Assembly (NCBI GenBank): GCA_964496695.1
Contig: CAZCBE010000002.1
Location: forward strand, 61,861-125,860
Length of the DNA stretch: 64,000 nt
Direction of reading: 5' to 3'
Origin: an uncultured Klebsiella sp.
GTDB lineage: Bacteria > Verrucomicrobiota > Verrucomicrobiia > Limisphaerales > SXTU01
Numbering within the stretch: position 1 is the stretch's first letter; every line of letters starts with the position of its first letter. The notes under the pieces are model-generated. The model searched no databases. It had not been told where the DNA came from and saw nothing but the letters and a program-made list of their open reading frames with translations. The position numbers and the translations under genes are program-made. Shown here one piece after another: positions 26,170 to 32,636 of the stretch.

Positions 26170-26360
26170 CGGAGCGGCGGGCTCCGACCCGGCGTTAAGA
26201 ATCAGCCTGCGCCGGACGATGCGGCAGTCTGTGGGGCGCGCGGCGTTCACGCCGCTTCAACGTGCGGAGCGGTATGGTGTTCTTATGCCCTGCTGCGTTC
26301 GGACGATGAAGCGGCATAAATGCCGCGGTCCTCACGCCGGGTCGGAGACCGGCGCTCCAC
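26169..26360. repeat. inverted pair of the GGAGCGCCGGTCTCCGACCCGGCG repeat family bracketing a convergent intergenic region
   Basis: 26169-26194 (GCGGAGCGGCGGGCTCCGACCCGGCG) and 26335-26360 (CGCCGGGTCGGAGACCGGCGCTCCAC) match 23/26 as reverse complements. The small hairpin GCGGCAtaaaTGCCGC (26311-26326) lies inside. Confidence 0.85.
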
Positions 26361-26366
26361 CGAAAG

Positions 26367-27743
26367 TCACTTCGCCGCTGACACCGCTTCGTCCGTCGCC
26401 TCGCTCAACACGGCGAGGGACTCTTCCAGCGCCTCGCGCGGGAGGGTCAGGGGCGGGGCGATCTTCACGGTCTGGCCCCAGGCACCCACGGGTGCGAAGA
26501 GCAGCAGCCCCTTCCACATGCACCGCTCGATGATCGCGTGCGCGAGGTCGTGGTCCGGCTGCTTCGTGCCGGGCTTCACGGTCTGCATGCCCGCGACCAG
26601 GCCGCGCGCGGTCACGTGGCCGATGACCTGCGGGTGCTTGGCCTGGATCGCTTTCAGGCCGTCCAGCAGCACCGGCTCCAGCGCGGCGGCGTTTTCCGTG
26701 AGCTTCTCGCGAATGATCTTCCGCACGCTGGCCAGCGCGGCGGCGACACACACCGGGTTGCCCGTGTGCGTGCTGGTCATCGAGCCGGGCGGGAACTGGT
26801 CCATGATGGCCTCGCGGCCGATGACCGCCGAGATGGGCAGCGAGCTGCTGATACCCTTGCCGCAGCAGATCACGTCGGGCGAGACGCCGTAGTGCTCGAA
26901 CGCCCAAAACTTGCCCGTGCGCCCGAAGCCCGCCTGCACCTCGTCGAAGGTCAGCACGATCTGGTGCTGGTCGCACCACTCGCGCAGCCGGCGCACGAAC
27001 TCCACCGGCGCGAAGTCCGGCCCCACGCCCTGATAGCTCTCCATGATGACGCCGGCGACGTTCTCCGGCTGGAGGCCGCGCGCGGCGACCGACTTGAGGA
27101 ACGATTCGAAGCTCGTGTCCTGCTGCCAGTAGCCATCTGGGAACGGCGCGGTGATGATTGCGGGGTCCTCGTTCACGATCCAATTCTTCTGCCCCGCCAT
27201 GCCGCCGGCCTGCTGCGAGCCCAGCGTGCGTCCGTGAAAGCCGCGTTCCCAGCCGATGATGCCAATCTTCTTGTTGCCGCCGACCTTGATGCCGTGGGCG
27301 CGGCTGAGCTTGATGGCGCACTCGGTGGCCTCCGAGCCGGTGGTGAGCAGGAAGACCTTCTTCAAGCCCTCCGGCGCGAGCGCGGCCAGCTCGCCCGCCA
27401 GCTCGGCGCGTTCCTCGCTGGGGAAGACGTAATTGTGCAGCAGCCCGCTGTTCACCTGGTCGAGGATGGCCCGCTTGACCTCCGGCGCGCAGTGGCCGGC
27501 GTTGGTCACCAGCACACCGCTGGACCAGTCCAGCCAGCGGTTGCCGTATTTGTCATACACAAAGATGTCCTGCGCGTGGTCCCACACGATGGGCGGCTGG
27601 CCGCGCATGGACTGCGGCTCGAACTGCCGGAGCCGCTCCAGCGTCGGCACCGAGTCCGGGTGGGGGATCGGCGTGACGATGCGGCGATACTTGGTTTCGA
27701 CGTGCGGAACGGTCCGCGGAGTGATGCTGAATTCTTTGCCCAT
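26367..27743 (-). CDS. class-III PLP-dependent aminotransferase (acetylornithine/GABA aminotransferase family)
   Basis: Start at ATG 27743 (MGKEFSITPRTVPHVETKYRRIVTPIP...). ...VTNAGHCAPEV..., LLTTGSEATECAIKL, FDEVQAGFGRTGKFWAFEH, CCGKGISS (the Lys of the PLP Schiff base). Confidence 0.9.
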   Translation of the reverse strand: MGKEFSITPRTVPHVETKYRRIVTPIPHPDSVPTLERLRQFEPQSMRGQPPIVWDHAQDIFVYDKYGNRWLDWSSGVLVTNAGHCAPEVKRAILDQVNSGLLHNYVFPSEERAELAGELAALAPEGLKKVFLLTTGSEATECAIKLSRAHGIKVGGNKKIGIIGWERGFHGRTLGSQQAGGMAGQKNWIVNEDPAIITAPFPDGYWQQDTSFESFLKSVAARGLQPENVAGVIMESYQGVGPDFAPVEFVRRLREWCDQHQIVLTFDEVQAGFGRTGKFWAFEHYGVSPDVICCGKGISSSLPISAVIGREAIMDQFPPGSMTSTHTGNPVCVAAALASVRKIIREKLTENAAALEPVLLDGLKAIQAKHPQVIGHVTARGLVAGMQTVKPGTKQPDHDLAHAIIERCMWKGLLLFAPVGAWGQTVKIAPPLTLPREALEESLAVLSEATDEAVSAAK

Positions 27744-28031
27744 AGTGCGGGTGACGATGCGGCCGGGACGGGTGAAGGTGCTACGCCGAAAGTCCCGCGT
27801 TCCGATGCTTTTGTGACGTGCCACGGGAGAACTGAAATTCTTTTGGCCACCAAGAGGCGCAAGATGGCGCAAGATGGAAATCCAGCCGGATGCCGGGGTG
27901 AAAACCTGATGGCAACCACGGAATACCCGGAATACGCGGAAGCGGAAAGAGACAGCGTCGGACCGGTCTTCATGCTTGAGGACATGGTGTGTCGGTTGGC
28001 AAAGGGGGAACACCGTCCGGCGCTTCCGTGT

Positions 28032-28193
28032 GGGCGCATCTTGACACTTCCCCCGAAGCTGAGCCGGCGCGGACGCCGGCGACACGGCCCGCGGGACGCG
28101 GGCGCTACGTAGCGCCGGCCTCCGGCCGGCCGTGTCGCAAGCGTCCTCGCTTGCCCGGTGGGGCGAGGTCGGGGGCAGTGTCAAGATGCGCCC
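28032..28193. mobile_element. 162-bp MITE-like element: 25-nt terminal inverted repeats plus a 9-bp direct flanking duplication
   Basis: Left TIR 28032-28056 GGGCGCATCTTGACACTTCCCCCGA. The right TIR 28169-28193 is its reverse complement at 24/25. CTTCCGTGT abuts both ends (28023-28031 and 28194-28202). No ORF inside. Confidence 0.7.
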
Positions 28194-28331
28194 CTTCCGT
28201 GTGTTCCGCGTATTCCGTGGTTCTCAATCGCTGGTTTTGGGCTGGACTGGTGGCGGACCGGAGGGTCCGCCGCACGGGTGCGCCGCTCAACCTGGCTCAT
28301 AGCCGATAGACCTTTGCCACGCTTTGACATG

Positions 28332-28342
28332 GACTATGAGTC
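28332..28342 (+). promoter_or_regulatory. C-box-like operator GACTatgAGTC abutting the C-gene ATG
   Basis: Perfect GACT-N3-AGTC palindrome ending one base before ATG 28343. TTGACA lies at 28324-28329 and a degenerate palindrome GCTcatAGC at 28295-28303. Confidence 0.5.
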
Positions 28343-28570
28343 ATGTTGAAACGTGACAAGGTTCTCTCCGCCCTCGGGCTGAACGTCCGCAGGAATCGCG
28401 AGGCCCGCGAGTTCACCCAGGAGAAGCTGTCGGAGAAATCGGGCCTCGATCCCACCTACATCAGCGACATTGAGCGGGGCCGGCGCAACCCCGGCATCAA
28501 AAACGTCGCCAAGCTGGCCAAGGCGCTGGGGCTCACCACGGCGGAACTCTGCCAAGGGGTGGACGCGTGA
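28343..28570 (+). CDS. XRE-family HTH protein resembling R-M controller (C) proteins
   Basis: 75 aa. ...EFTQEKLSEKSGLDPTYISDIERGRRNPGIKNVAKLAKALGL... is close in pattern to C.Esp1396I/C.PvuII-type regulators. Confidence 0.75.
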   Translation: MLKRDKVLSALGLNVRRNREAREFTQEKLSEKSGLDPTYISDIERGRRNPGIKNVAKLAKALGLTTAELCQGVDA

Positions 28571-28588
28571 AGGGGAAAGCCAAGTCCG

Positions 28589-28662
28589 CGGAGCGCCGGT
28601 CTCCGACCCGGCGTGTGGATGTTCGGCCCCCGGAACTCGCCGGGTCGGAGACCGGCGCTCCG
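28589..28662. repeat. perfect 25-nt inverted repeat (CGGAGCGCCGGTCTCCGACCCGGCG) with 24-nt loop, just downstream of the C gene
   Basis: 28589-28613 is the exact reverse complement of 28638-28662. Same family as 26169/26335. It may act as a terminator hairpin, although no U-tract follows. Confidence 0.85.
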
Positions 28663-28741
28663 GCCCTCCGCGAGGAGCCCGTGCCCTACCGCACCGCCTC
28701 CGAATCTTCTCCCTCTCCGCTCCGGGGAGGGCCGGGGAGAG

Positions 28742-28828
28742 GTGGTGGCGCTCCGTTTCATTGACCTCTTCTGCGGCATCGGCGGCTTCCGCCTCGCCTT
28801 CGAGCACGCGGGTGCGCACTGCGTCTTC
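28742..28828 (+). pseudogene. dcm: remnant of a C5-cytosine DNA methyltransferase (N-terminus and motif I only)
   Basis: GTG 28742 onward encodes VVALRFIDLFCGIGGFRLAFEHAGAHCVF, containing motif I DLFxGxGG. Recognisable MTase sequence ends before the convergent HNH gene stop at 28860. Confidence 0.7.
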
Positions 28829-28859
28829 CTTGGCGATTGGGCGGACTCAGCCATCAGGT

Positions 28860-29657
28860 CTACAGCTTGCGGAAAATCTTGGCGCGATGCTCTGAAAGGA
28901 ATGCCAAATCAGGTAACGCCGCATCATCGGGCAGCCACAACGGCTGGCCAGCATAAGCGCCAAAGTTCTCGGAGACTGAACGCTGAGAAAGTTCGAACTT
29001 CAACTTCGGCGAGAGCAGAAGTCGCAGTGTGTCGTCGAAAGCAATCAAGCCACGGTCAAATGCCGCATCGTGCAAGCGTGACAGGGACAAACCGTTGCGG
29101 ACATTAAGCCGCTCGGTGGGATGAGCACCCCAAGGTAAAATGTGCGATGCCACCAACAGCTCGCGAATTGCCAGCCCAGTTATGCCGCATCGTCCGCCGA
29201 AGTTGTTCAGCACCGCATCGCGAAAATACTCCTGTCCACGGCGCAGCTTTACGCTCGCTGTTGTTTCTGTAGGCCCAATCGGTGGGCGTTTGCAGACGCG
29301 GACACCTTCCTTCGGTAACACTTCAAGGTCGCTGCTTTCATCCACGTCGAACAGGTTTCGCAGAGCTTCCTCGCTCACTGGCACCGCCTCATTGAGGTTT
29401 TGGTGGAACTCGTTCCACACCGTCCGGTCGAGGGCACTTGCACCCTCAAGCCCTTTGATGCCGCGCAGCTTCAATGCAGGGTCCAGCGAAGCGAAGTTGC
29501 ACAGCTTCATGGCGACGCTGTTGGGACCACGTTCGAGCTTGTCTGCCAACGCCATAATCGCTGGGTGTCGCGCGTGAAGCTGACCGAAGGTCAGCTTGTG
29601 GTAGAGATTCAAGGTGACGAGCAATTCACCGTGGGTCCATCGTTTTCCGGCTGCCAT
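28860..29657 (-). CDS. HNH endonuclease (HNH_2 / COG3440-type predicted restriction endonuclease)
   Basis: Start taken at ATG 29657 (MAAGKRWTHGELLVTLNLY...). N-terminal ...GPNSVAMKLCNFASLDP... C-terminal RCGITGLAIRELLVASHILPW...NGLSLSRLHDAAFDRGLIAFDD is the H-N-H core. Confidence 0.8.
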   Translation of the reverse strand: MAAGKRWTHGELLVTLNLYHKLTFGQLHARHPAIMALADKLERGPNSVAMKLCNFASLDPALKLRGIKGLEGASALDRTVWNEFHQNLNEAVPVSEEALRNLFDVDESSDLEVLPKEGVRVCKRPPIGPTETTASVKLRRGQEYFRDAVLNNFGGRCGITGLAIRELLVASHILPWGAHPTERLNVRNGLSLSRLHDAAFDRGLIAFDDTLRLLLSPKLKFELSQRSVSENFGAYAGQPLWLPDDAALPDLAFLSEHRAKIFRKL

Positions 29658-29746
29658 GTTTTGACGGTGCCAGGTTCGCAGTGATGAGCGAAGGAGGAAA
29701 GTGCTTGCCGCCGAAAGCAAACCTGGCCAGGTAGTTCTGCCGAGCT

Positions 29747-30415
29747 ATGTCTAACGAATCTGAACTCGGCACTGAACCACTCGACCCCGCCGCTGTCTTC
29801 GCCTGTGCCCTTTCGCTGCGCGAGGCGTGCCTGAAGCGCGCGAAAACAAACCCGCAACTGAACTTGAGCGAGAACTACAACGGCATGGATCAGTTTTTGC
29901 GCGAGCTGATGCGAGTCGCCAATCTGTTCGAGGCATGGGCTTGTGCCCATGTTGAGTTCGAGGAGATGAGCGAGGTTTGGCCGTCTCTGATGGAGGACAA
30001 ATTCGGCGACGCTTGCCTGGAGTCCACGCTTCCGAGCGCGCTGGCTCAGTTCGATGATTCCGACTGCTTGCGGGTAGCACTCCGGTTGCGATTGCCCATA
30101 CAAGCAGACGATAAGCTTCGCGTGCCCATTGATGTTCGCGCACCCAATCCGATTGGGGGCTCGGATTTCCAAGCGTTTCGGATTCAAACCGTGCGCAATG
30201 AGCTTGATGAAGGCAATGCAGTTGCGTTCACCACCGATGATGACCCGTTCGATGAGGAGTTTGGGCCACCGTATTTCGCACTGTATGGCGTGGGCTATGA
30301 TGGATTGTCAGAACACATCGCCGACCGAAACACTTATTCAGATGCCTTGAGCCTTGCTCAGAAGCTTGCGCCCGGTGTGGCACTTCCACTCAAACCGATT
30401 TGTTTCACCACATGA
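29747..30415 (+). CDS. hypothetical acidic protein, no recognisable family
   Basis: 222-aa ORF divergent from the HNH gene (89-bp spacer). Rich in D/E (DDDPFDEEF, FDDSDC). More protein-like than the overlapping antisense ORF 29609-30187. Confidence 0.5.
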   Translation: MSNESELGTEPLDPAAVFACALSLREACLKRAKTNPQLNLSENYNGMDQFLRELMRVANLFEAWACAHVEFEEMSEVWPSLMEDKFGDACLESTLPSALAQFDDSDCLRVALRLRLPIQADDKLRVPIDVRAPNPIGGSDFQAFRIQTVRNELDEGNAVAFTTDDDPFDEEFGPPYFALYGVGYDGLSEHIADRNTYSDALSLAQKLAPGVALPLKPICFTT

Positions 30416-30552
30416 GCGACCGACGGTCTGTTTTGCAGTTGAAGGTTCAACGTTGAGCGTTGGAGGTTGGAAGTTCACCGTTCCTCACCACGCCTGACGT
30501 CTTCACCAAGGCCAAGGCTGTTGAGGCGCGTGGCCGGCCGGGACACCCCGCG

Positions 30553-30885
30553 TCATTTCTTGCCGGACTTGTGGCTGCGCGGTTGGTTGCCCCGCTCGGT
30601 CGTGCGACTCGTTGCGCGGGGAGCCGAGCGACGCGGTTCCTCGCGCCGGATCTCAGCGCGGCTGGGCTTGGCTTGGGAGACGGGGGCGGAGCTTCTGGTG
30701 GTGGCTGGTTGCTTAGCTTTCACGCCCTGACCATATCCCTCCTTCTTAAGCGGCACAACCGCCCGTTTGGCAAAGGTTGGAAGGAGCGGGAGAAGAACGG
30801 CGGTGATTTCGAGCCAATCACGACCGTGATGTTCGTCTCCCTCGTTCGGAAATTTCAGCTTCCACAGCGTCGCGTAAATGCTCAT
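30553..30885 (-). CDS. hypothetical small protein with basic, low-complexity C-terminus
   Basis: 110-aa ORF (MSIYATLWKLKFPNEGDEHHGRDWLEITA...). It sits between two copies of the vsr 5' end. It may be a gene fragment. Confidence 0.3.
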   Translation of the reverse strand: MSIYATLWKLKFPNEGDEHHGRDWLEITAVLLPLLPTFAKRAVVPLKKEGYGQGVKAKQPATTRSSAPVSQAKPSRAEIRREEPRRSAPRATSRTTERGNQPRSHKSGKK

Positions 30886-30946
30886 GGATTATGCGTAGCG
30901 TTTCGCCGTTGTTTCGACGAGCGGGCAACTTGCCAACCATCACGCG

Positions 30947-31522
30947 ATGCCAGATGTCTTCACCAAGGCCAAACGGTCGGCGGTCATGGCGCGCATCCGG
31001 TCGCGGGGGAACCAGGCGACGGAGCTGGTGCTGGTGCGGGTGTTCCGCGCGCATGGGATCACGGGGTGGAGGAGGCATCTGAAGTTGAGAGTGGCGGAGT
31101 TGAGAGTTGAGCGTCGGAAGCGGGTGCGTTCGTCCGCGCTCGGCGGCTCTCAACCCTCAACTTTCAACCCTCAACTCACCGTTCGTCCTGACTTCGTGTT
31201 TCCCAAGCTGCGGGTGGCGGTGTTTGTGGACGGGTGCTTCTGGCATGCGTGTCCGCAGCACGCGACGCAGCCCAAGGGGAATGCGGCGTTCTGGCGCGCG
31301 AAGCTGGCGCGGAATCAGGCGCGGGACCGGCTGGTGACGCGGACGTTGCGGCGGGCGGGGTGGCGGGTGCTGCGGCTCTGGGAGCATGAGCTGGCCCGGA
31401 AGCGTGCGGCGCGGTTGGTGGCGCGGTTGCGGCGGGTGTTGGCGGGTGTGCCTGCGAAACCCGCACAGACAGCGACACCTCACCCCAACCCCTCTCCCCG
31501 GTCGAGGCGGAGAGGGGCCTGA
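30947..31522 (+). CDS. vsr: very-short-patch repair endonuclease (Vsr) carrying an in-frame repeat insertion and a repeat-derived tail
   Basis: MPDVFTKAKRSAVMARIRSRGNQATE... then RPDFVFPKLRVAVFVDGCFWHACP...FWRAKLARNQARDR...GWRVLRLWEHEL matches E. coli Vsr block by block (...SKNMRAI...PDFVV...IFTHGCFWH...FW..K...N..RD...GWRVL.VWE). Confidence 0.8.
   Translation: MPDVFTKAKRSAVMARIRSRGNQATELVLVRVFRAHGITGWRRHLKLRVAELRVERRKRVRSSALGGSQPSTFNPQLTVRPDFVFPKLRVAVFVDGCFWHACPQHATQPKGNAAFWRAKLARNQARDRLVTRTLRRAGWRVLRLWEHELARKRAARLVARLRRVLAGVPAKPAQTATPHPNPSPRSRRRGA
31083..31183. repeat. about 96-nt GTTGAGAG/CTCAACCC-type palindromic repeat inside vsr
   Basis: Encodes RVAELRVERRKRVRSSALGGSQPSTFNPQLTV between the Vsr N-terminal helix and the PDFVF catalytic block. 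The arms GAGTTGAGAGTTGAG / CTCAACCCTCAACT(T/C) are imperfect complements. A related unit lies at 30440-30480. Confidence 0.7.
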
Positions 31523-31612
31523 GATGGGCCCGCGAAACACGCCAAAAGACGCGAATGAGGTGAAGAGAACGCGGAGTTTGGAACTCGGAATGCGGAATGA
31601 AATAGGACCGCG

Positions 31613-31859
31613 CGAATGGGGAGGGCACCGCAGAGGCGGGACGGGCGCAGAGGTGTTGCGGAATGCGGAATGTGACGCCTCCGCATGAGCCTGTGCCGGC
31701 GACTTGCAGTCGCCGTCCGTGGGCCACAGCAGGACGAACCAGCTTCAAGCTGTCCACCCGCAACGCGGCGGCTGCAAGCCGCCGGCACGGGGACCGGGCG
31801 AACGGGAGGGCACCGCAGAGGCGGGTCGGGCGCAGAGGAGTTGCGGAATGTGACGCCTC
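31613..31859. repeat. two direct copies of a ~61-69-bp repeat (GGGAGGGCACCGCAGAGGCGGG.CGGGCGCAGAGG.GTTGCGGAATGTGACGCCTC)
   Basis: Copy 1 is 31613-31681 (with an extra GCGGAAT). Copy 2 is 31799-31859. Identity is about 90%. They are flanked by CTCTCCCC...GGGGAGAG-type hairpins at 31473-31519 and 31852-31897. Confidence 0.85.
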
Positions 31860-31943
31860 TCCCCAACCCCTCTCCCCGAGCGAGGCGCAGAGGGGGCAAT
31901 CGCACGGTTACAGCGGGCGTTGGGGCGTTTCGTTCATCCATGT

Positions 31944-32636
31944 TTATCGGTGTGCATCCGTAGTTGGATCGGCTGGGGAAATTCGGTTCAGGTCGGCGAG
32001 GGCGGTGTGGGCGGGGGCGGCGAGCCAGCGCTCGAAGGCGGCTTTGCGCGCGGGCCAGTCGGTGTCGAGCATCGCGAACCAGGTGGTGTCGCGGTTCTGG
32101 TTTTTCACGACCATGTGCTGGCGGAAGCAGCCTTCGTATTGAAAGCCCAGGCGCAACGCCGCGGCGCGGCTGCGGGCGTTTTCCGCGTTGCACTTCCACT
32201 CGACGCGCCGGTAGCCGAGGTCGTCGAAGAGGTGGCGCAGCAGGAGGAAGACGGACTCGGTGTTGACGGGCGTGCGTTGTGCGGCGAGGCCATACCAGAT
32301 GTGGCCGAGTTCGGCGGTGCCGTGCGCCGGCGTGATGCGCAGGATGGAGATCATGCCGATGCGTTCGCCAGTGGGGTGGCGGCGCACGGTGAAGAAGAGC
32401 GGGTCGGTGCTGGCCTGCGCGGTGTGGAGCCAGGCACGGAAGGCGTCGAGATCCGCATAGGGGCCGTGGGTGAGGTAGCGCCAGATTTCCTGCGCGGCGA
32501 GGGGCGTGTGGCTGGCGTGATAGAGTTCGGCGGCGTCGTCGTCCGCGTGGAGCGGGGTGAGGCGGACGTGGCGGCCGGCGAGGGGTTGGTGCGCGGGCAG
32601 GGGCCAAGTGGCGGGGAAGGGCAGGGCGATGCTCAT
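31944..32636 (-). CDS. GNAT family N-acetyltransferase (RimJ/RimL-like, Acetyltransf_3)
   Basis: Start at ATG 32636 (MSIALPFPATWPLPAHQPLAGRHVRLTPL...). ...ERIGMISILRITPAHGTAELGHIWYG...RRVEWKCNAENARSRAAALRLGFQYEG. Confidence 0.8.
   Translation of the reverse strand: MSIALPFPATWPLPAHQPLAGRHVRLTPLHADDDAAELYHASHTPLAAQEIWRYLTHGPYADLDAFRAWLHTAQASTDPLFFTVRRHPTGERIGMISILRITPAHGTAELGHIWYGLAAQRTPVNTESVFLLLRHLFDDLGYRRVEWKCNAENARSRAAALRLGFQYEGCFRQHMVVKNQNRDTTWFAMLDTDWPARKAAFERWLAAPAHTALADLNRISPADPTTDAHR

Follow-up and report, generated by a model that had tools for sequence, protein, structure and literature searches.

We analyzed a 64,000-nucleotide (nt) stretch of contig CAZCBE010000002.1 (hereafter, the window), in which an open reading frame (ORF) of 75 amino acids (aa) at 28343..28570 of the forward strand is, on sequence comparison, a genuine controller (C) protein gene of a restriction-modification (R-M) system and belongs to the C.PvuII-like class. 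Our overall reading, to which we assign a probability of roughly 0.75, is that this PvuII-like C protein is expressed from a pvuIIC-like promoter that carries a third C-box, that its methylase (M) and restriction endonuclease (R) genes have been replaced by an HNH nuclease gene, and that the C gene persists as a self-regulating orphan. A first-pass annotation of the window, made from the sequence alone, had listed the ORF, a GACTatgAGTC palindrome (28332-28342) ending on the base before the ATG at 28343, a TTGACA hexamer (28324-28329), and an upstream palindrome GCTcatAGC (28295-28303). All of these elements were confirmed, and the sequence before the start codon ends in ...CAACCTGGCTCATAGCCGATAGACCTTTGCCACGCTTTGACATGGACTATGAGTC, followed by ATGTTG. 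Their interpretation was changed in part by comparison with homologous loci (numbered below with the prefix L).

The 75-aa ORF matched the Pfam family HTH_3 (2.7e-17), and its top PADLOC model was 'Control_protein' (1e-16). Its best single-sequence match in the PDB was C.AhdI (5e-9), with C.BclI and C.Esp1396I next. In a search of the PDB with a profile built from 51 family members, ten controller-protein sequences (C.BclI, C.AhdI, and C.Esp1396I with point mutants) took the top places with E values of 1.7e-15 to 3.6e-12, the uncharacterised Neisseria factor NHTF came next at 6e-12, and the first clearly non-controller XRE protein appeared at 4e-9, some three or more orders of magnitude behind the controller proteins. 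The AlphaFold model of C (predicted local distance difference test score, pLDDT, 87) has a five-helix XRE fold whose closest PDB counterpart is C.AhdI (template modelling (TM) scores 0.80/0.91, root-mean-square deviation 0.7 Å, 42% identity). The fold itself does not discriminate, as ClgR, DdrO, and SinR also match the model not far behind C.AhdI, and NCBIfam gave nothing above cut-off for C, with weak hits to a HipB-type antitoxin, TrbA, RstR, and others. These two observations would also fit an XRE-type regulator or antitoxin of a generic kind, unconnected to restriction-modification. However, the NCBIfam matches all lie far under their curated cut-offs, whereas C proteins lead in sequence, profile, and structure; furthermore, nearly all loci have a 5-methylcytosine (m5C) methylase gene, intact or as a remnant, directly 3' of the gene, the architecture of the C-boxes is in place, and the locus holds no toxin partner. 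We regard the generic regulator as extremely improbable, and the controller assignment of the first-pass annotation is upheld over it.

Upstream of the C gene, conservation between loci starts abruptly at CAACCT (28288..28293, forward strand), 55 nt before the ATG, and the sequence beyond -55 is unrelated between loci. This left edge forms the outer flank of the C-box motif and has a mean of 1.47 bits/position; the loci used for this and the other bits-per-position figures were pre-selected at <=1 mismatch in the proximal box described below. The family promoter consensus reads caaCcTGgCT.AT.GtCcATaGACctt...c..gttt.ggcATGGACTAT.AGtCATG. It includes a double C-box, GGCTcatAGCC-GATA-GACCtttGCCA in the window (28294-28319, forward strand), which is found in register at -49 in 46 of 65 family loci. 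The distal operator OL (C-box 1A/1B, 28294..28304) is a perfect 4+3+4 palindrome, GGCTcatAGCC, so that the upstream palindrome reported at first is indeed present but is not degenerate: it is a perfect 11-mer and the first half of a double box. The box 1 consensus is G(G/A)CT-(c/g)AT-(a/c)G(t/c)C from -49 to -39, with variants such as GACTcatAGTC and GGCTgatCGTC in relatives. A 4-nt inter-operator spacer follows (28305..28308; consensus (c/g)AT(a/g)), which reads GATA here and CATA in most relatives, and then the weaker operator OR (C-box 2A/2B, GACCtttGCCA, 28309..28319), which is conserved only in its left half, GAC(c/t) (mean 0.93 bits), and is separated from the proximal palindrome by about 12 variable bases. 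A candidate -35-like hexamer, TAGACC (28307..28312, forward strand), overlaps the spacer and half-box 2A, is conserved as aTAGAC, and lies 30 nt before A28343.

This arrangement can be compared with published C promoters. PvuII-type operators follow the consensus GACT-N3-AGTC-N4-GACT-N3-AGTC, the C-dependent -35 of PvuII lies within the spacer and half-box 2A, and the transcript is leaderless (PMC2175313). Sorokin et al. described 35-bp motifs whose PvuII-like representatives typically pair a strong 5' copy with a weak 3' copy, with a sharp mode of 17-18 nt between motif and start codon (leaderless C genes) and an unrecognisable -10 (PMC2632904). In the window, 23 nt lie between the end of the 26-bp core (28319) and the ATG; with the published 35-bp motif centred on this core, its outer flank takes up 4-5 nt of them and about 18 nt remain. 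A longer ORF is ruled out by an in-frame TGA at 28337-28339, upstream of the ATG, and no purine-rich Shine-Dalgarno-like run was seen in the 20 nt before the ATG (judged by eye, at this gene alone). The upstream double box thus reads as the canonical operator pair, with a motif-to-ATG spacing that fits a leaderless C gene. The TTGACA hexamer (28324..28329, forward strand), which the first-pass annotation had listed, is unconserved, and relatives read TTTGCC, TTCGGC, or TTTAGC at this position. A -10 placed 17 nt downstream of it would fall inside the ORF. We rejected it as a -35, and it is probably no promoter element; the conserved -35-like sequence is TAGACC. A conserved methylation site in the C promoter was also considered and rejected, because CCTGG lies over OL only where half-box 1A is GGCT, and relatives with GACT read CCTGACT.

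The palindrome that abuts the ATG, GACTatgAGTC (28332..28342, forward strand), would be a third C-box lying over the -10/+1 region. The sequence GACTNNNAGTC occurs exactly four times in the 64 kb, and 11 sites with <=1 mismatch were found against 18 expected from shuffles. Because occurrence alone is no better than chance, the case for this box rests on its position and conservation. Checked against the family, it was perfect and adjacent to the ATG in 46 of 65 distinct loci and within <=1 mismatch in 57 of the 65. Its left and right half-sites carry 1.96 and 1.78 bits/position, respectively, compared with 1.11 for the preceding 12 nt and 0.93 for box 2. In addition, reverse-complementing the symmetric OL of PvuII, GACTCATAGTC, gives exactly GACTATGAGTC, and reverse-complementing the OL of L042, GACTGATAGTC, gives the alternative proximal form of relatives, GACTATCAGTC. 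Since a leaderless RNA would not contain the bases of the right half, the constraint on them acts on DNA. The proximal box is missing in distant C subfamilies (47-71% identity: L061, L069, L070, L131), which keep the double box, and is thus a feature of this subfamily. In the Esp1396I system, the operator with the highest affinity is a third one, OM, which is almost perfectly symmetric and represses M from a position over the M transcription start (PMC3488213). An OM-like site would naturally sit in the C promoter of the present family because M is co-transcribed with C. The first-pass view of GACTatgAGTC as a PvuII-type box abutting the ATG therefore stands, but not as the main operator, a role that falls to the upstream double box.

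The left half of this box, GACTAT, probably doubles as the -10, and the proximal palindrome could be explained as core promoter and start region only (-10 GACTAT plus discriminator), with incidental symmetry and with C acting solely at the double box. GACTAT is the most conserved block and holds the A and T most important in a -10 hexamer, mismatches concentrate in the right half (AGCC, CGTC, GGTC), and the distant subfamilies do without the site. Known PvuII-type promoters reportedly place the -10 at the position of the proximal box. On the other hand, the right half AGTC is far more conserved than both the upstream 12 nt and OR, the 11-mer exactly reverse-complements a consensus OL down to the class of its central triplet, and the C protein of Esp1396I uses such a symmetric site over a start point. 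Weighing these points, we consider the purely promoter-based explanation unlikely and favor a third operator. The double-box pattern has no second copy in the window. Exact single boxes occur elsewhere in it at 31701, 51824, and 52435, two of which share GACTTGCAGTC, and no C-box was found near the HNH/ORF222 promoter (described below) in any locus.

In the recognition helix (PTYISDIE, residues 37-44), the identity of residue 42 follows the first spacer base almost without exception: D occurs with g (box 1B ...GCC) and G with c (...GTC), and a few distant D-type members also carry g. This covariation suggests a protein-DNA contact, with shared ancestry as another possible cause. The spacer, GATA or CATA, has no central GT, and the helix reads D(P/A/Q)TY (DPTY in the window), not HRTY or DR(T/S)Y. 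Known classes have the spacers TGTA or CGTG, whose central GT is nearly invariant and is functionally essential in PvuII (PMC2175313). By these characters, the subfamily is a new sub-class outside the two described spacer/helix classes.

The C subfamily comprises >800 clusters at 90% identity. The best 120 of these >800 relatives are all exactly 75 aa long and at least 80% identical, and the few matches with a named source, as well as most associated genome records, are from Verrucomicrobiota. We classified 86 loci by tblastn with the proteins of the cassette; the first locus sample was found through C and is biased toward loci that retain it. Nine loci (L001, L002, L017, L042, L050, L051, L055, L062, and L065) hold an intact cassette. 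In L001, L002, and L004, three co-directional genes stand downstream of C; they encode, in this order, an m5C methylase of about 402 aa, a protein of 404-436 aa that contains an MvaI_BcnI domain, and Vsr, the very-short-patch repair endonuclease. The M start overlaps the C stop in intact cassettes. M (402 aa, PF00145) is Dcm-like (NF007772, 3e-112), and the predicted specificity of M is CCWGG. R (436 aa) has a 175-aa N-terminal extension followed by a complete MvaI_BcnI domain and gave no match in a PDB sequence search. The family order is therefore C-M-R-Vsr and not the C-R-M order suggested by the first-pass annotation: R has the same direction as C but is the second gene after it. In most other loci, M or R remnants lie directly 3' of C. 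Among the species-level genome loci together with the window, 7 had an intact C-M-R(-Vsr) cassette, 18 had a truncated M with an HNH_2 gene on the opposite strand (the commonest state), 18 had a truncated or different M without HNH, 15 had no M, 4 had a different M, and 1 had M only; 16 species-level loci were too short for classification. Flanking genes vary between loci, and no locus in the sample has the aminotransferase or GNAT genes that flank the window cassette. Judged by these differing flanks, the cassette is horizontally mobile, and the window copy may either have decayed where it now lies or have come in already reduced.

The window C gene is unlinked to a functional R or M gene, and the description of it as an orphan was correct. 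A frameshifted N-terminal remnant of M (28567..28764, forward strand) starts with a GTG at 28567 that overlaps the C stop (GTGA), and its translation, MKGKAKSAERRSP...LREEPVPYRTAS, parallels the N-terminus of L001 M before running out of frame ahead of motif I. A hairpin resembling a repetitive extragenic palindrome (REP), with 28-nt arms that are 96% complementary, is inserted in this remnant (28589..28662) and begins 19 nt past the C stop. The reading frame is lost, and what remains downstream is a motif I stub (FIDLFCGIGG..., 28754..28852, forward strand) that corresponds to M residues 54-86 of 402 (tblastn, 73% identity; PF00145, 3e-7; Dcm subfamily NF007772, 5.7e-10) and ends 8 bp before the HNH stop. 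The stub thus spans about 33 codons instead of the 29 first counted. R gave no tblastn match in the window. With intact systems in relatives, the M remnant and the missing R support the proposal that the regulator outlived its system. The same repeat is found at this position in L008, L013, L031, and L039, one arm recurs at 26333-26358, and further copies occur at other places in many Verrucomicrobiota loci. The hairpin might end C transcripts; a Rfam scan of 27000-32500 gave only sub-threshold hairpin and microRNA look-alikes.

In place of M and R, the window carries an HNH_2 nuclease gene on the reverse strand (28860..29657; 265 aa from a conserved ATG). It matches PF13391 (2.4e-10), the PADLOC HNH model over its full length (1e-79), and the NCBIfam domain 'PT-DNA restriction endonuclease'. 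Residues 120-237 (linker and HNH domain) match residues 173-292 of VcaM4I (6YEX) at 3e-16, residues 1-120 have no Pfam, NCBIfam, or PDB sequence match to a sensor domain, and the AlphaFold model, with a pLDDT of 55, is too poor to assign a fold. From these matches, the replacing nuclease is probably methylation-dependent and type IV-like. Divergently from it lies ORF222 (29747..30415, forward strand), which travels with the HNH gene and is without an assigned function (no Pfam, PHROG, or PADLOC match); its homologues adjoin HNH in L011, L023, L027, L033, L103, L108, L110, and others. The G + C content is 57% over 28800-30600 versus about 65% in the flanks. The divergent HNH/ORF222 promoter region contains the palindrome ACCTGGCCAGGT (29721..29732), which consists of two overlapping CCWGG sites and is unique in the window. 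It is present in 19 of 86 loci, always adjoining the inserted nuclease gene in the promoter that is divergent to ORF222 or ORF113 (including L005, L011, L012, L014, L019, L023-L025, L027, L029, L030, L033, L035, L044, L048, L066, and L083). Since intact cassettes encode a Dcm-like methylase, the palindrome could function as an operator or be sensitive to methylation. CCWGG itself is not clearly avoided in the window (observed/expected 0.78 and 0.96), which is uninformative.

The last surviving gene of the cassette is vsr (30947..31522, forward strand), which scores 100.1 bits with TIGR00632 against a cut-off of 97.85, has the FVDGCFWH motif, and is 58% identical to L001 Vsr. A 24-nt direct repeat of its 5' end (30492-30515 and 30949-30972; forward strand) brackets a 457-bp segment, a structure (30492..30972) also present in L172, and this segment contains ORF110 (30553-30885, reverse strand), with partial homologues in L030 and L038. 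Decay of vsr was considered and rejected, because its 14% divergence from L172 falls within a hypervariable repeat insertion and leaves the core conserved. The insertion (31067-31187) is in frame, lies in a surface loop, and is replaced by a different repeat in L172.

The same exchange can be followed in other loci. At the left junction, the M remnant ends in many loci at residue 259-274 with the same junction, ...GAGAAATACACnCTCACCGA, then TCA, and elsewhere it ends at residue 30, 86, 107, 129, 156, or 176. Wherever it ends, the remnant stops 0-30 bp short of the HNH stop or of a transposase gene lying between the two. In L005 (6098-6601), L009, L010, L013, and L024, the M remnant and HNH are separated by such a gene, which encodes an IS200-like Y1 transposase. 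The varied M endpoints (28852-28862 in the window and the junctions of L009-L048) may reflect independent insertions or serial deletions anchored at the HNH end. At the right junction, L025, L037, and L048 have ORF113 followed by a complete 259-aa MvaI_BcnI ORF that starts at R residue 177 and begins about 330 bp from the HNH start. ORF113 of L025 was tested as the missing R N-terminus and rejected, as it shows no similarity. The 259-aa ORF (L025:3411-4190, L035:10277-11056, L037, and L048) follows a conserved 113-137-aa ORF and occurs with a truncated methylase; it has a pairwise ratio of nonsynonymous to synonymous substitution rates (dN/dS) of 0.18 among L025, L037, and L048 and may be a nuclease without a cognate methylase. 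In L035 the ORF113 and MvaI_BcnI pair stands beside a different nuclease gene, and other loci have ORF222 instead. That L035 gene (9027-9980, reverse strand; 317 aa) has a PD-(D/E)xK-like C-terminus with an EVKTT motif and occupies the HNH slot beside the same palindrome, which indicates that the slot accepts different stand-alone nucleases. Two HNH lineages, about 50% identical, also use this slot.

The C and HNH trees are incongruent. A recent spread of the HNH module was rejected, as synonymous divergence exceeds 0.4 even in the closest HNH pairs. From the disagreement of the trees together with this divergence, the replacement architecture is old and has undergone reshuffling by recombination. 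Overall, comparison of the loci indicates recurrent replacement of the M-R core in related soil and freshwater bacteria. Beside an HNH/Vsr remnant, L089 (1-2888) encodes a 343-aa m5C methylase, a 384-aa ORF, and a 714-aa HATPase_c_3 protein; different methylation-related systems cluster at such sites.

We then consider whether the orphan C is still in use. A full 75-aa C ORF is present in 20 of 21 HNH-disrupted loci. Disrupted loci give a pairwise dN/dS of 0.17 for C, intact cassettes 0.19, and the family as a whole about 0.17, whereas the value for M remnants relaxes from 0.11 to 0.29. Between the window C and that of the intact cassette L001, dN/dS is 0.056 at a dS of 0.65. A closer comparison is provided by L172, a 96%-identical contig with the same orphan architecture including the M stub and the vsr duplication. 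The two C genes show 9 synonymous and 2 nonsynonymous differences (P=1.3e-4 under neutrality), and the 55-bp promoter has 0/55 changes, compared with 16/289 in the M stub. Divergence from L172 over 28177-31690 is mosaic, at 0% in the promoter, 0.6% in HNH, 1.6% in ORF222, about 5% in C and the M stub, and 1.2% (2/166 bp) in the upstream flank, which indicates short recombination tracts within the cassette.

Several points weigh against a functional, PvuII-like orphan. The C and stub segment of L172 is ten times more diverged than HNH and may come from an intact-cassette donor, in which case the selection seen in C acted elsewhere. When loci were sampled through HNH instead of C, only 4-6 of about 44 with enough flank kept a 75-aa C; 14 more had a distant, shortened, or partial C-like match, and about 24 had none, some of them with an M remnant. 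A sigma-70 promoter and terminator scan of 28150-30000 found nothing, and the lack of a recognisable -10 in it counts against the promoter, though this is usual for C promoters (PMC2632904). The spacer without the central GT and the divergent helix depart from the classes on which the comparison is founded, and the activation and repression logic is carried over from PvuII, AhdI, and Esp1396I.

These points lead to the alternative that C and its boxes are a pure, functionless relic, kept intact by recent orphaning or by repeated gene conversion from intact cassettes. C is missing even from M-remnant holders among the HNH-sampled loci (L103, L108, L117, L125, and L129), it is pseudogenised or truncated in L015, L073, L064, and L089, the tree incongruence and the mosaic divergence speak of frequent recombination, and neither the window nor the HNH promoter offers a second C-box target. 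Against a relic, M is frameshifted, interrupted by a repeat, and reduced to 33 codons, and R is missing, whereas C keeps its full length and all three boxes are perfect; relative to L172, most changes in C are synonymous and the promoter has none; and the low dN/dS over a dS of 0.65 relative to L001 leaves only a very short neutral period. We judge a pure relic to be improbable. Because C is often missing from HNH loci, it must be dispensable for the new module, and the most likely course is that it is lost over time, with the window copy appearing functional and self-regulating.

By analogy with the characterised systems, a C dimer on OL would recruit RNA polymerase, and transcription would start at or next to A28343. 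At a higher C level, OR would be occupied and the promoter shut, and the third symmetric C-box over -10/+1 would add to the repression. The orphan gene most likely still makes protein that represses or activates only its own promoter, and C transcription would extend through the dead M remnant and, in antisense, into the HNH gene. Another alternative is a co-opted regulator, kept because it now serves the new module, which would set antisense transcription into HNH or act in trans on cassettes of the same specificity, as an immunity repressor or premature activator. The C promoter faces the HNH 3' end with no terminator-like site between, and the stops of C and HNH are only 290 bp apart. C-like HTH genes are convergent to or overlap the HNH 3' end in the distant lineages L089, L131, and L138, and the C genes of orphan loci show purifying selection. 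Exclusion mediated by C has been reported for R-M systems that share C specificity. However, the HNH/ORF222 promoter has no C-box in any locus, C is absent from most HNH loci, and the long REP hairpin right after C could stop read-through. It seems quite unlikely to us, and self-regulation remains the preferred reading. A broader and still more speculative scheme would make C and vsr the conserved arms of a Verrucomicrobiota defence swap locus, in which a Dcm-type core is repeatedly exchanged for methylation-dependent nucleases (the two HNH_2 lineages and the PD-(D/E)xK-like gene). The ACCTGGCCAGGT promoter would sense remaining methylation and delay the nuclease, and the orphan C would serve as a trans immunity repressor that acts through the high-affinity start-site box to block related methylase cassettes and self-restriction. 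We regard this scheme as quite improbable.

Other features were observed around the cassette. Nested inverted repeats of about 310 bp (27914-28222), resembling a miniature inverted-repeat transposable element, lie between the aminotransferase gene and the cassette and partly recur in L033; their arms are 27914-27945/28191-28222, 28032-28056/28169-28193, and 28067-28108/28109-28150. With 9 sites against 33.5 expected, CTAG is strongly under-represented in the 64 kb; GATC is mildly under-represented (0.77).

In textbooks, controller proteins are the switch that times mobile R-M systems, and to our knowledge almost everything learned about them derives from a handful of examples in proteobacteria and Bacillus. 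There are precedents for C proteins, C-boxes, leaderless C genes, and C homologues that lack R-M partners; what is new here is a subfamily variant and an unusually clear decay series, not a new kind of system. This subfamily of an uncultured phylum departs from known classes in its spacer/helix pairing, its predicted third operator over the start, its operon order, and its decay states, and the C-M-R-Vsr order misfits the usual 'M first, R later' wiring. The decay series allows the fate of a regulator to be followed after its toxin and antitoxin genes have been swapped for a type IV-like nuclease. Intact and disrupted cassettes together offer a comparative system for the conflict between methylase and methylation-dependent nuclease, for C-mediated exclusion, and for operator evolution. 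For annotation, the many 'XRE-family regulators' beside HNH endonucleases in Verrucomicrobiota are revealed as stranded C genes.

Finally, we compared the family with known systems. As in the C.PvuII class, the protein of the family is small and of the XRE type, the double operator pairs a strong 5' copy with a weak 3' one at a centre-to-centre distance of 15 bp, a -35-like hexamer lies in the spacer and half-box 2A, and about 18 nt separate the motif from the ATG. However, the PvuII operators read GACTcatAGTC-tgta-GACTcaaAGTC (PMC2175313), whereas those of the family read G(G/A)CT(c/g)AT(a/c)G(t/c)C-(c/g)ATA-GACCttt..., so that the spacer (C/G)ATA is without the central GT, and the helix is DPTY in place of HRTY or DR(T/S)Y. 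The family further differs in its extra perfect box at -11 to -1 and in its co-directional C-M-R-Vsr order, where the PvuII class has a C-R operon and transcribes M separately, and the window copy differs in having neither M nor R. C.Esp1396I (profile E=6e-14) is similar in that three C sites are predicted here, the most symmetric of them over the start. In Esp1396I, however, OM belongs to a separate, convergent M promoter, whereas the third box of the family is in the C promoter with M downstream of C. The closest solved structures, C.AhdI and C.BclI, have 42% and 30% identity, the same five-helix fold (TM 0.80-0.84), and the conserved signature (S/T)Y..(G/E/D)(V/I)ERG.RN, but AhdI (with a Type I-like M/S arrangement) and BclI come from Proteobacteria and Firmicutes and have CGTG-type spacers.

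The other genes of the locus also have known counterparts. Like the EcoRII/Dcm-Vsr modules for CCWGG and MvaI/BcnI, the intact cassette joins a Dcm-like m5C methylase, Vsr, and a nuclease domain of the MvaI_BcnI family, but the R of the family has an extra 175-aa N-terminal domain. The linker and HNH domain of the replacing nuclease align with VcaM4I, an EVE-HNH enzyme dependent on 5-methylcytosine or 5-hydroxymethylcytosine, and the ScoMcrA family is a further relative of this kind; the N-terminal 120 residues, in contrast, match none of the known sensor domains. Sorokin et al. 2009 reported many genes of the C family that had C-boxes and leaderless spacing but no R-M neighbours, and proposed them to be vestiges of horizontal transfer. 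The orphan described here differs from these in that its vestige can be traced, with intact M-R relatives, visible breakpoints (the M stub and R' remnants), and identified replacing genes.

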